Shown here in pieces: positions 24,014 through 45,477 of a DNA stretch of 64,000 nucleotides. Each line of letters opens with the position of its first letter. Position 1 is the first letter of the stretch. The notes under the pieces are model-generated. The model saw only the letters and a program-made list of their open reading frames with translations, did not search any database and was not told the DNA's origin. The position numbers and the translations under genes were made by a program. The stretch comes from Betaproteobacteria bacterium (GTDB taxonomy: Bacteria > Pseudomonadota > Gammaproteobacteria > Burkholderiales > SHXO01), in contig SHXO01000002.1 of NCBI GenBank assembly GCA_009693245.1, forward strand, positions 6,280 to 70,279. The letters run 5' to 3'.

Positions 24014-25618
24014 ATGTCACAAAATCCAGAGTCCCATCCGCCAATCGAGACCGAGGAGCCCCCGCGGGAGGGCGTCTCGGGAACCATGGAATTTCTCATT
24101 GGGAGAATGCGGCGCAATGGGGACTTCCCCGCGCTTTCGAGCACCATAAGCGCGGTGAGCAAGGCAGCAGCATCGGAAATGGAGGGCATCTCCGCGCTCG
24201 CTGGCAACATTCTCAAGGACTTTTCCTTCACGCAAAAGCTGCTGAAGCTGGTGAACACCGCTCACTTTGGCCGTTTCGGCGGCACGGTCAGCACGATCTC
24301 GCGGGCCATCATGGTGATGGGTTTCGACCAAATTCGTACCCTTGCGGTGACCTTGTTGCTATTCGAGCATTTGCAGAACAACGCGCAGGCGGACGACCTC
24401 AAGGATGAGGTGCTGTCGGCCTACTTCAGTGCGCTCATCGCTCGCGACTTGGTGTCGAAGGCTGGCGTGCGGAATTCGGAGGATGCTTTCATCTGCGCCA
24501 TGTTTAGCCGGCTAGGTAAGCTTCTGGTGACTTTCTATCTGTACGACGAGCGCCTCGCGATCGAGCGTGCGATAAGCGCTGGCGCCAGCGAAGAGTCCGC
24601 ATCCATCCAGGTTCTGGGAATTTCCTATAGCGAGGCCGGAATGGGGGTGGCGAGCTCCTGGGGCTTTCCGGATAAGCTGGTTGCCTCCATGCGGCCTTTG
24701 CCGGAAAGCGAGATTCGCAAGCCTGCCGGGGATACGTCGCGTCTGTGCGTGCTATCGGAGTTGTCCTCCAGCCTAACGCAGCTCATCCGCGATGTGCCTC
24801 TCAGCAAACGCCAAGAAAGCGTCAAGGCCATGGTGGCGCGGTTCGGAAAAGGCTTGGGTATCACTGAGCAACACCTGGACGGCGCGGTGCTCAATACGGT
24901 GAACGAGATCGCCCGCGACGCCGGGATACTGAATTTTCGCACGGACAAAAGCGCTCTCTTCGATAAAGCCCGTAAATGGTCAGTGAAAGCCAAGACAAAA
25001 TCCGGCAACGATAGCGAGGCCGGTCTGCCAATGGAGGCCGTGCTCCTGGACGGCTCCAAGACGACCAGCGCGCCCGCCGCCGGGGCGGCTTCGGGCGCGG
25101 CCAGGCAAGCCATATTGAGCGCGGGATTCCAAGACATCAGCAACGCTTTGGTAGGTGATTTCAACCTCAACGATGTCTTGCGCATCATTCTCGAAACCAT
25201 GTACCGCGGTCTCGGATTCACGCGCACCATCCTTTGTGCCCTGGATCCGAAGAGCGATTCCCTCAAGGCTCGTTTCGGTTTCGGGCAAGACGTGGATCAA
25301 ATCATTCGTGCAGGCTTTTCCATTTCTCTCTCGCCCGCGCGCGATGTGTTCCACGCCGCCATCAGCAAAGGCGCGGACATCTACATCGATGATGTGCAAA
25401 GCGAACGCATACGAGATCACATTCCTGGGTGGTACCAGCAACTCATTCCCGCCAAATCCTTTGCGCTATTTCCCGTGATGATCGCCAAGAAGCCCGTGGG
25501 GTTGTTCTACGGGGATGCGAACACCGCGAAATCCCTGCGCCTGGAGGCCGGCGACATGGCGCAACTCAAGACGCTACGCAACCAGGCGGTACTCGCGATC
25601 AAATCTCAGAGCGCGTAA
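24014..25618 (+). CDS. HDOD domain protein with a C-terminal GAF-like domain (signalling protein)
   Basis: 534-aa ORF. The N-terminal half is HDOD-like (FPALSSTISAVSKAA...LLKLVNTAHFGRFGG...ISRAIMVMGF). The C-terminal roughly 160 aa has a GAF-like pattern. Confidence 0.7.
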   Translation: MSQNPESHPPIETEEPPREGVSGTMEFLIGRMRRNGDFPALSSTISAVSKAAASEMEGISALAGNILKDFSFTQKLLKLVNTAHFGRFGGTVSTISRAIMVMGFDQIRTLAVTLLLFEHLQNNAQADDLKDEVLSAYFSALIARDLVSKAGVRNSEDAFICAMFSRLGKLLVTFYLYDERLAIERAISAGASEESASIQVLGISYSEAGMGVASSWGFPDKLVASMRPLPESEIRKPAGDTSRLCVLSELSSSLTQLIRDVPLSKRQESVKAMVARFGKGLGITEQHLDGAVLNTVNEIARDAGILNFRTDKSALFDKARKWSVKAKTKSGNDSEAGLPMEAVLLDGSKTTSAPAAGAASGAARQAILSAGFQDISNALVGDFNLNDVLRIILETMYRGLGFTRTILCALDPKSDSLKARFGFGQDVDQIIRAGFSISLSPARDVFHAAISKGADIYIDDVQSERIRDHIPGWYQQLIPAKSFALFPVMIAKKPVGLFYGDANTAKSLRLEAGDMAQLKTLRNQAVLAIKSQSA

Positions 25619-25622
25619 CGCG

Positions 25623-28200
25623 TTACGTGAGCCTCTCGGCGGCAGCCGGAGGGATCTCTCGCCCGCCTTGCGTGCGCCGCTGGCGGCAGGGCACGACGAA
25701 AGTAAACACCGAGCCTCCCGCTGGATTGTGAGAGGCGTTAATGTAGCCTTCGTGCTGGCGCAAGATCTCGCTGCATGCCGCCAGATTGAGCCCTGCTCCG
25801 CCCACCCCATGGGCGTCATTCCCAACCGGGTGTTCGAAGACCCGCTCCAGCTCACCCCCTGGAATACTCGTACCCTCGTCGGTGACACTCACTTCGGCGG
25901 CTTCCAAGATTCCCATGTACTGCGCCCCATGTCCTTCGGGTAGCCAGGACTGCGCGACACGCACCGCAATACGCTTGCCCGCCGGGGTGAATTCGTGCGC
26001 ATTGGACAGGAGGATCCGCATCACTTGCCGGATGCGCTCCGGATCGCACCAGGCATATACCGGGAAGCTGGAGCATTCCAAGACGATATTGACTCCGCGC
26101 CGCACCGCCACCGCGCTTAGTTCGTCCGCCGCCGCGCGTACGATGGCATTCATCTCGTGAATGCCGAAAGCGCTAACCCCCGCGCTTAGCTTGGAGATGC
26201 CGAGCAGCTCGCCCAGCGAAGACAGCAAGCGCTGCCCAACCTCATCGATCTTGCTGGCGAGAAACTCGGAATTGGGTTGAGCTCCAACGGCTACCCGCGG
26301 GACATGAACGGTATGGGGATTGGCTTCCAACTCGCGCACGCGTGACTGAAGTTGCTTGACCTCAACCTCGGCGGCGGCGATATCCGTGGCGTCTCGTATC
26401 ACGCAAAGAAACATCCGCTCTTCGCCGAACATCGTCTCGCTCACGGCGGTCTCCATGGGGAATTCCTGGCCGCCGGCACGAAGACCGGCTAATATGGGCA
26501 GCGGAACAGACGTGTCTTGCAAGCCGCGCTCCCATAGGCCGCGATTCTTCTCCGGCATCAACGCGCGGAGATTCTGGCCCGGCAACTCTGATTGCTCGAA
26601 TCCAAACATGCGGCAGGCGGCGGCATTGGAGGATTGAATAACGCCCTGTTGGTTGGCGATGACCACGCGCGCGCTCAGGGAATCGAACAGGACTTCAAGC
26701 CTCTCTTCGATCTCCTTGCCCGCGGCCTCCGCATGTTCGGCTCGCTTCAGCGCTTCCTGCAACGCTTGCGCGGATTCCTTCGCCTGCGAAATATCTTGCA
26801 CTACCCCAATGAAACGCGACAGCCGGTCTTGTTCTCGAATGGGCACCATCTTGATGCGAACCCATTTGACCCAGTCGTCGTCCTTGTGAATACGGTGTTC
26901 GCTTTCAAATTCCGTCCCGCGAATGAGCGCGGTCTGAAAAGCCTGCGCCACGGCTTGCCGGTCGTCGGGATGAATGCGCCTCGACCAACCCCAGTCTTGC
27001 GCTTGGTCCTGGGTTAACTCAACCAACGCTTCGCAGCGCTTGTTAAGGCGCACGGTTTTACTGTCGGAGGAGATCTCCACGATGGCTACCGGGGCATGGT
27101 CATGGACGATCTTCAACTCATCGGTTCTAACCCCAAGCTGCTGCTCCAGGTCTTGGGCGGATTCCTTCAAACGCCGGTTCGTCCTCGACAAGCGCAGCAT
27201 GAGGACGAAAGGGGAAAAACTCGCCACGAGAGCGCTAACGCCCAATACATTGGCCCAGATCCATGCTGTGGTATCCCGGCTCAGGCGCGCGCTCAGCTCC
27301 CAAGTGCGCCCAAACACTTGAAGACTCACCGATGCGTGGGCGAAATTGTCCGGCTTCACTCCGGTGGAGGGCGGGTAACTTGCAAGTGGCAACGACCCGC
27401 GTTGGCCTTCACCCGCATCTCGTATTTCGATCTGCTGGCGCGTGGTTTCGGGGTTCTCGGTGGCGCGCAAGAAATCCGTGGCGGAGAACGCACTGAAGAC
27501 CCAGCCCCGTACCATCCCCAAGGGCCGCCACACGCTGGGTCCGATATCCGATTCCCAATAGACGGGGAAGTACAGCATCGCCACGGGGTTCGAGTCTTTC
27601 TCCCGAGCGAGGGTAATCGGCGCGGAGAGTACCGCAGCATTTGCCTCGCCTGCCCGCGCCATGGCGGCTTGAAGGGTTGGTTCCGTCCACATATCGAAGC
27701 CCGCCATGCGGGCATTGGCGCCTTCCCCCGGTTCCAACAGGAGTAGCGGCGCGTAGACCTCGCGCTTGCCCGAGGGATAGATGTTGAAGTCCCGCAGCTT
27801 TTGCTCGCGCATGCGGTTGGTGAGTTCATCTTTTTGCCTGCGCGAAATGACCTCCGCGAAACCCAGGGTCCCAGGCCCGTGCGAGGGAAGATCCAGCCGG
27901 GACGCATACTTTCTCCAGCGCTCCCGCCTCACGTTGGCGTCACCTTCGAACAATGCGCTGGCACCCGCCAGAACCTGCTCGTGGGAGCGCATGCGCTCCC
28001 ACGAGCTTGAGCCGCATCTCATTTACGTAGCTCTGGGCGCGCACCTGGTCTGCATTCCTAGCGTGATGCAGGGCGCCCCACCACACGCCAGCCGTGATCG
28101 ATAGCGATGCAAGCAACACACTCCATGCCACGCGGTGGCGGCGTAGACTCGATGTCATGCTGGCACCTGGCCGCGCACTTACCTCCATTCGTTCGTTCAT
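25623..28200 (-). pseudogene. CHASE-TM-PAS-PAS-histidine kinase-like sensor, split by a +1 frameshift near the N-terminus
   Basis: ORF 27940-28200 encodes the N-terminal TM helix and the start of CHASE (...WSVLLASLSITAGVWWGAL...QSYVNEMRLKLV). ORF 25623-28022 continues as ERMRSHEQVLAGASALFEG..., followed by PAS domains and HATPase_c (LLSNAHEFTP, GGAGLNL). The frames differ by one extra G in the GGG at 27998-28000. Confidence 0.8.
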
Positions 28201-45382: not shown

Positions 45383-45477
45383 TCCGTTCGCCCTGAGCTT
45401 GTCGAAGGGCGCTCTGCGCAACTCGCTGAAGTTAGAGGGTCCTCCGCTCATGCTTCGACAAGCTCAGCACGAACGGA
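45383..45477. repeat. inverted-repeat (REP/MITE-like) element in the msrP-msrQ spacer
   Basis: Arm tccgttcgccctgagcttgtcgaag (45383-45407) pairs with cttcgacaagctcagcacgaacgga (45453-45477). About 23 of 25 positions are complementary. Confidence 0.7.

Follow-up and report, generated by a model that had tools for sequence, protein, structure and literature searches.

A probable template-switch event that perfected a quasi-palindrome and split a CHASE sensor gene in an uncultivated freshwater betaproteobacterium

The DNA analyzed here (the window) is a stretch of 64,000 nucleotides from the metagenome-assembled genome (MAG) of a Betaproteobacteria bacterium (assembly GCA_009693245.1, contig SHXO01000002.1, positions 6,280 to 70,279). 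It contains a frameshifted gene for a CHASE sensor protein (25623-28200, minus strand), within the gene order hemA, recQ, sensor, HDOD-GAF protein, and 2-hydroxyacid dehydrogenase. As the gene stands, it is read as two minus-strand open reading frames (ORFs) that abut at a palindrome, an 86-aa ORF entering the palindrome in one frame and a 799-aa ORF leaving it in the next. Deleting one base of the run at 27998-28000 yields one continuous ORF of 858 aa. The upstream fragment (27940-28200, minus strand) encodes, as judged from the ORF and its hydropathy, a cytoplasmic tail and membrane helix 1, followed by 20 out-of-frame residues, ending in YVNEMRLKLVGAHALPRAGSGGCQRIVRR and a stop, so that the upstream frame closes 20 codons past the shift. 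Its start codon and the bases preceding it are conserved with the orthologues described below. The downstream fragment (25623-28022, minus strand; NCBI MSQ58157.1) encodes the CHASE domain, membrane helix 2, two PAS domains, and HATPase_c, and runs to its end uninterrupted by any other stop or frameshift.

CHASE domains are extracytoplasmic, lie between two membrane helices, and require the preceding helix for export. The restored 858-aa protein has this architecture and the ORFs as they stand do not: CHASE occupies residues 89-267 (E = 3e-37), and the two most hydrophobic segments of the protein lie on either side of it (residues 24-44, hydropathy 1.44, and residues 314-338, hydropathy 1.85). 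Two PAS regions and HATPase_c (E = 7e-17) are also present. Membrane helix 1 (residues about 24-44, VAWSVLLASLSITAGVWWGAL) is encoded in the 86-aa ORF, and the break therefore separates it from the sensor domain. In the public record, MSQ58157.1 belongs to a "Betaproteobacteria bacterium" MAG and is annotated as intact, under the name "PAS domain S-box protein". The public protein collection lacks the 86-aa upstream ORF, and the frameshift is therefore unflagged.

Two further features of the sensor were noted. No Pfam match to HisKA was obtained, even at E <= 1. By manual alignment, the expected H-box segment (26226-26264, minus strand, residues 587-599 of the 799-aa ORF) reads FLASKIDEVGQRL and contains no His, and the H-box-like segment of the orthologues is KIDEV or KINEV, Asp or Asn taking the place of the expected phospho-accepting His. 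Judging from these residues, the orthologue group as a whole may not be a canonical autophosphorylating kinase. Separately, compared with each of the three orthologue lineages, the window carries 12 extra in-frame nucleotides (28176-28187, minus strand), which add four residues to the cytoplasmic N-terminal tail, in a part of the protein where the alignment is uncertain.

The palindrome at the junction of the two ORFs (27977-28006) consists of GCTCGTGGGAGCGCA followed directly by TGCGCTCCCACGAGC. It equals its own reverse complement over 30 nt, with zero loop and arms of exactly 15 nt; the bases just outside it (t/t) do not pair. A direct count of zero-loop perfect palindromes in the window gave 58 of 10 nt, 21 of 12 nt, seven of 14 nt, one of 16 nt, and this one of 30 nt. 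At the base composition of the window, the expectation for 30-nt palindromes is 1.1e-4 per 64 kb, so the observed palindrome lies far beyond chance expectation. An inverted-repeat scan of the whole window identified it as the sole 100%-complementary, spacer-less pair of such length. We found no further copy of either arm in the window, allowing up to 2 mismatches. The longest inverted repeat of the window lies elsewhere (45383-45477) and has 25-nt arms that are 92% complementary and 45 nt apart. An earlier reading made without database searches (the sequence-only reading) had reported both the perfect 30-nt palindrome and an offset of one G between the two frames, and both are borne out by the reverse complement and by the one-base deletion. 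It had also argued that the downstream product lacks its first membrane helix and that the frameshift should therefore be inactivating. The first part stands, the helix lying in the 86-aa ORF and not in the 799-aa product, while the second is a deduction from topology.

To place the gene among its relatives, the restored N-terminal 494 aa were used as a query against 5.8 billion protein clusters, and four orthologue clusters were returned. One of them (P0001, 789 aa), with 100% identity to the query in the aligned region, begins at the central ATG of the palindrome and derives from Logan contig SRR8561390_245476 (L001). The others are an 851-aa protein with 73% identity (P0002) from the Burkholderiales MAG GCA_046160525.1 (L002), an 864-aa protein with 68% identity (P0003) from MAG GCA_031390025.1 and two Logan runs (L003, with L004 and L005), and an N-terminal fragment with 62% identity (P0004) from an ENA metagenome (L006). 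The gene is intact in these three syntenic orthologue lineages (62-73% aa identity). Gene order is hemA, recQ, sensor, and dehydrogenase in L002, and sensor, HDOD, and dehydrogenase in L003; the synteny that both have in common with the window supports the orthology of the sensors. Nucleotide identities give the tree ((window, L002), (L003, L006)), with values of 0.79 within pairs and about 0.71 between them. Among the GTDB representative genomes, the L002 MAG was the only one to match, and a scan of JGI metagenomes gave only distant HATPase matches; neither yielded a further orthologue. Exact-protein look-ups of the window RecQ and of the 799-aa ORF returned no record. Overall, neither the protein clusters nor the GTDB representatives nor the JGI metagenomes yielded a closer relative or an intermediate allele.

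Some peculiarities of these loci deserve mention in their own right. The neighbor convergent with the sensor gene (24014-25618, plus strand) encodes a 534-aa HDOD plus GAF protein; its HDOD counterpart in L003 has only 348 aa, and L002 has no HDOD protein at that position. Toward its end, the L006 contig (ENA ERZ27315235 k141_2837971, about 1337-1421) carries the reverse complement of nt 931-1013 of the L003 gene, joined after nt 942. This rearrangement, which may be either a local inversion or an assembly chimera, truncates P0004 at 332 aa, before membrane helix 2, and leaves the N-terminal region used here unaffected.

The Logan contig L001 provides a second assembly of the locus. Its source, SRR8561390, is a winter metagenome from Lake Baikal, taken at 1250 m (PMC7678222). 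The 4285 nt that it shares with the window align without gaps and with 5 substitutions, and the palindrome and the frameshift, including the extra G, are identical in the two. The only amino acid difference is due to two adjacent substitutions (26653-26654, AAC to GCC, Asn to Ala). Of the other three single-nucleotide differences, one is synonymous in the sensor gene and two fall in the neighboring HDOD-GAF gene.

The origin of the palindrome becomes apparent when the orthologues are aligned. Across the site, the gene-oriented sequence of the window and L001 is AAG CTC GTG G GAG CGC ATG CGC TCC CAC GAG CAG. The corresponding sequence is AAG ATC GAG GAG CGC ATG CAC GCC CGC GAA CGG in L002, AAA ATC GAG GAG CGC TTG CGG TCC CAC GAG CAA in L003 (also in L004 and L005), and AAA ATC GAG GGG CGC ATG CGG TCT CTC GAG CAG in L006. 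The outgroup consensus, AAR ATC GAG GRG CGC, thus encodes K-I-E-E/G-R, in frame in all three lineages. Relative to it, an eight-base stretch in the window lineage carries three changes, namely A>C at 28005, A>T at 28001, and an added G within 27998-28000, the last being the sole frameshifting indel of the 2.58-kb gene. On the plus strand (28000-28006), the reconstructed TCGATC has become CACGAGC; in gene orientation, ATCGAG-G has become CTCGTGGG. The effect on the gene is to replace Ile-Glu with Leu-Val and to add one base. Across the full site, the derived allele is CTCGTGGGAGCGC and the reconstructed ancestral allele is ATCGAGGAGCGC. The Arg codon that follows the central ATG ends in C in the window and L002, and in G in L003 and L006; because the tree pairs the window with L002, parsimony assigns C to the ancestor of the window.

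All three changes are confined to the gene-5' arm of the palindrome (27992-28006, minus strand), which from the alignment of the window, L001, L002, L003, and L006 and from an enumeration of alternatives appears to be the recipient arm. Where there was a mismatch or bulge, each of them creates Watson-Crick pairing to the gene-3' arm (27977-27991, minus strand), and every one is predicted exactly by copying the complement of that single donor arm. The gene-3' arm, which encodes (M)RSHEQ, is taken to be the unchanged one because its outer ten bases, TCCCACGAGC, are identical in L003. The ancestor deduced from the outgroups, GATCGAGGAGCGCATGCGCTCCCACGAGC, already contained a 16-nt perfect core, GGAGCGCATGCGCTCC (27984-27999), with partly matching outer arms, and quasi-palindromes occur at the site in all three orthologue lineages. 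The core itself is unremarkable, at about chance level, since another 16-nt palindrome exists in the window. In single-stranded form, the derived site forms a hairpin with a 13-bp stem at -18.1 kcal/mol (z = -7.0 versus shuffles), compared with -8.8 kcal/mol for the reconstructed ancestor and -5.5 to -6.2 kcal/mol for the sites of the three orthologues, which are ordinary versus shuffles. Both flanks are collinear with the orthologues, and the net length change is 1 nt.

We enumerated every placement of two substitutions and one 1-nt insertion in the 29-nt reconstructed ancestor. Only 3.6e-5 of the paths lead to any perfect 30-nt palindrome, and 9e-6 lead to the observed one, which among six possible palindromic products is the only one with all changes in a single arm. 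Rough arithmetic from the single frameshifting indel and from the share of outgroup-invariant columns that the window has altered (about 11%, counting gap columns) puts the chance of an untemplated origin for these three specific changes well below 1e-5. A quasi-palindrome-templated mutation had been proposed in the sequence-only reading on the strength of the extra G, and the comparison with intact outgroups agrees with it, all three changes matching the opposite arm. The ancestral sequence given in that reading, with one G fewer and reading ...KLVERM..., was incomplete, as Leu-Val is itself mutant and the ancestral residues were Ile-Glu. Because all outgroups encode K-I-E-E/G-R, the event comprises two substitutions as well as the inserted G, and three templated changes are therefore stronger evidence than the single G. 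It had further suggested comparing orthologues and confirming the G run; the intact orthologues (851 and 864 aa, plus the N-terminal fragment) carry an imperfect palindrome and an uninterrupted frame, and the extra G recurs in the second assembly.

Considering these observations together, we think it likely that a recent template-switch event converted a quasi-palindrome into the 30-nt palindrome and broke the sensor gene, which is most likely a young pseudogene. Bacterial quasi-palindrome mutations make the repeat perfect or more perfect, with the nascent strand serving as template, and they give clusters of substitutions and frameshifts (PMC7202029). PMC5453318 describes Ripley's classic model and the four-point model that generalizes it. 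For proteobacteria, comparative work reports a preference for correcting imperfect inverted repeats to perfect ones (PMC5941160). We predict that the strand being made was the plus strand of the window, copied from left to right, because the models rewrite the arm that is synthesized second. A replicating polymerase would have completed the 16-nt core, whose right half (27992-27999) was perfect already in the reconstructed ancestor and is the presumed site of fold-back nucleation; the core of that ancestor could nucleate a hairpin, the stability of which rose from -8.8 to -18.1 kcal/mol upon the change. After synthesis of 27977-27999, the nascent 3' end TGCGCTCC may have paired with GGAGCGCA of the same strand, by fold-back or strand switch. 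The arm already made (27977-27983) would then have templated about 6-7 nt, GCTCGTG being copied as CACGAGC, before the nascent end re-annealed to its proper template via its terminal bases and synthesis resumed. A switch and return is favored over a fold-back chimera because the flanks on both sides are collinear with the orthologues. The outcome would be a quasi-palindrome made perfect and a membrane helix 1 uncoupled from CHASE and everything downstream of it.

Several points weigh against a single recent event with loss of function. The ancestral state rests on outgroups that are 21-29% divergent in DNA, the pre-mutation allele not having been found in a near-identical strain, and on a branch this long the three changes may have been acquired one at a time. 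The window MAG and the Baikal contig may have been built from the same reads, so their independence is not guaranteed. GC skew is flat across the window, and the leading and lagging strands are thus unassignable. Finally, the pattern of nonsynonymous and synonymous changes considered below is also compatible with a downstream product that is still useful.

One alternative keeps the templated mechanism and spreads it over two or three rounds, each fixing one mismatch or the bulge. The long branch of the window (79% nucleotide identity to its nearest relative) leaves time for several events, and the reported correction of proteobacterial inverted repeats toward perfection (PMC5941160) would fit such a series. 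We consider it unlikely, given that a stretch of 6-8 nt in one arm contains all three changes and that a single donor arm accounts for them. If rounds were separate, either arm could serve as donor, and of the six possible palindromic products, four are altered in both arms. The +1 step must be recent because it alone breaks the gene; this is silent on the timing of the two substitutions.

Addressing the age and consequence of the break, we find that the downstream stretch has no stop in the 799-codon frame and 18 and 23 stops in the other two frames. With changes assigned by parsimony and L003 as outgroup, the nonsynonymous to synonymous ratio (N/S) is 88/98 on the window branch and 116/105 on the intact L002 branch (Fisher p = 0.32), so that relaxed selection was not detected on the window branch relative to the L002 branch. 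Because further stops are lacking and N/S resembles that of the intact sister branch, the break appears recent relative to the branch. The same two observations, the intact 799-codon frame and an N/S not above that of the sister, would be expected if the palindrome arose as proposed and the gene were alive, either as a truncated sensor starting at ATG 28022 or at ATG 27992 in the palindrome center, or as a split sensor of two polypeptides. Both ATGs are in frame, and both have been picked by gene callers. By eye, no obvious purine-rich ribosome-binding sequence was seen in the 20 nt upstream of either ATG. Without helix 1, the periplasmic CHASE domain, of roughly 250 aa, would have no N-terminal export signal, and the fused architecture is kept in all orthologues. 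A very young pseudogene would equally have an intact frame and a normal N/S. A living gene thus seems improbable, and loss of function, as deduced from the topology of the protein, is the more natural expectation. We also considered programmed ribosomal frameshifting, which is rejected in view of the orthologues, all in frame, and the lack of a recognized +1 shift motif at CTC GTG G GAG (read by eye).

Very little probability attaches to an artefact arising outside the cell, whether by template switching in amplification, by end-repair fold-back at a palindromic site, or by assembler error. The palindrome length of 30 equals k-1 for a graph assembler with k = 31, which we take to be the setting of Logan's assembler; we know of no De Bruijn assembler that invents k-mers missing from the reads. 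The two assemblies may share reads, SRR8561390 being a Lake Baikal sample, and library preparation is described as a source of false multi-base variants at palindromes (PMC6941819, PMC10908179). Published cases lie near read ends or in soft-clipped reads (PMC6941819) and are described as calls of low allele frequency (PMC10908179), hence unlikely to reach consensus. Here both assemblies, which differ from each other at 5 other sites, have the derived allele as their consensus, and the derived arm is joined to true flanks collinear with the orthologues, which an artefact could produce only by a switch and a return. A fold-back (hairpin) chimera in particular is ruled out, as the palindrome ends at 15 nt per arm and the flanks are collinear rather than inverted.

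We give scant credence to the idea that the site is a mutational hotspot acting as a one-way contingency switch, with recurrent, high-frequency knock-out of the sensor in natural populations via the 16-nt core and a standing on/off polymorphism of its signaling pathway, or that the new palindrome is itself functional, as the site of a dimeric regulator or as a transcription structure close to recQ. Least credible of all is an origin by ordinary untemplated mutations, the palindrome having formed by chance or been selected as a hairpin or dimer-binding site. A lineage-specific difference at a single site is not rare, since about 11% of outgroup-invariant columns (gap columns included) differ in the window, yet the chance of a palindrome is the 3.6e-5 given above once these kinds of change are granted, and far less unconditionally. 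Selection for a hairpin at the price of frameshifting a conserved 858-aa sensor is implausible, and no T-run or other terminator feature lies beside the stem. A terminator is likewise dismissed, no T-run following the stem on either strand. A search for an ectopic donor gave no second copy of the arm at up to 2 mismatches within the 64-kb window. A mobile palindromic element or other insertion was rejected, both arms aligning base for base with orthologous coding sequence at a net change of 1 nt.

The preferred explanation, a single template switch, accounts for the unflagged broken gene in a public MAG, MSQ58157.1 being most likely the larger piece of a CHASE sensor gene. The locus is an unusually clean natural case, in which two substitutions and a frameshift are wholly explained by hairpin-templated copying. 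More broadly, an alignment makes such a cluster look like a set of independent mutations, which would raise substitution counts unduly. It is a natural instance of a known mutational mechanism and no new kind of element, and it opens no long-standing question. To our knowledge, most of the bacterial evidence for this mechanism comes from laboratory reporters.

Comparison with known systems places the locus closest to the quasi-palindrome model of Ripley (1982), the E. coli thyA hotspot, and the lacZ QP5/QP6 reporters of the Lovett laboratory, in all of which an imperfect repeat is made perfect (PMC7202029, PMC5453318). As in these systems, a single short tract combines substitutions with a frameshift, the two arms adjoin each other and are short (15 nt), and one arm exactly complements its unchanged partner. 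Unlike the thyA and lacZ systems, this is a natural, consensus-level allele in an uncultivated bacterium, recognized by comparing orthologues, and whereas the reporters restore a reading frame, here the frame is destroyed. Surveys of short template switches (the four-point model of Loytynoja and Goldman 2017; yeast coding sequences, PMC8604942; RNA hairpins, PMC8794818) similarly describe clusters of differences that are copies of the neighboring reverse complement, with a new perfect hairpin as the outcome. Those surveys concern eukaryotes or RNA genes, and the present case is a frameshift in a bacterial protein-coding gene. Like the CHASE transmembrane sensors (Pfam PF03924), the restored protein consists of helix 1, CHASE, helix 2, and a cytoplasmic PAS-PAS-HATPase region; unlike them, the window copy carries a frameshift between helix 1 and CHASE, and its orthologue group has no detectable HisKA.

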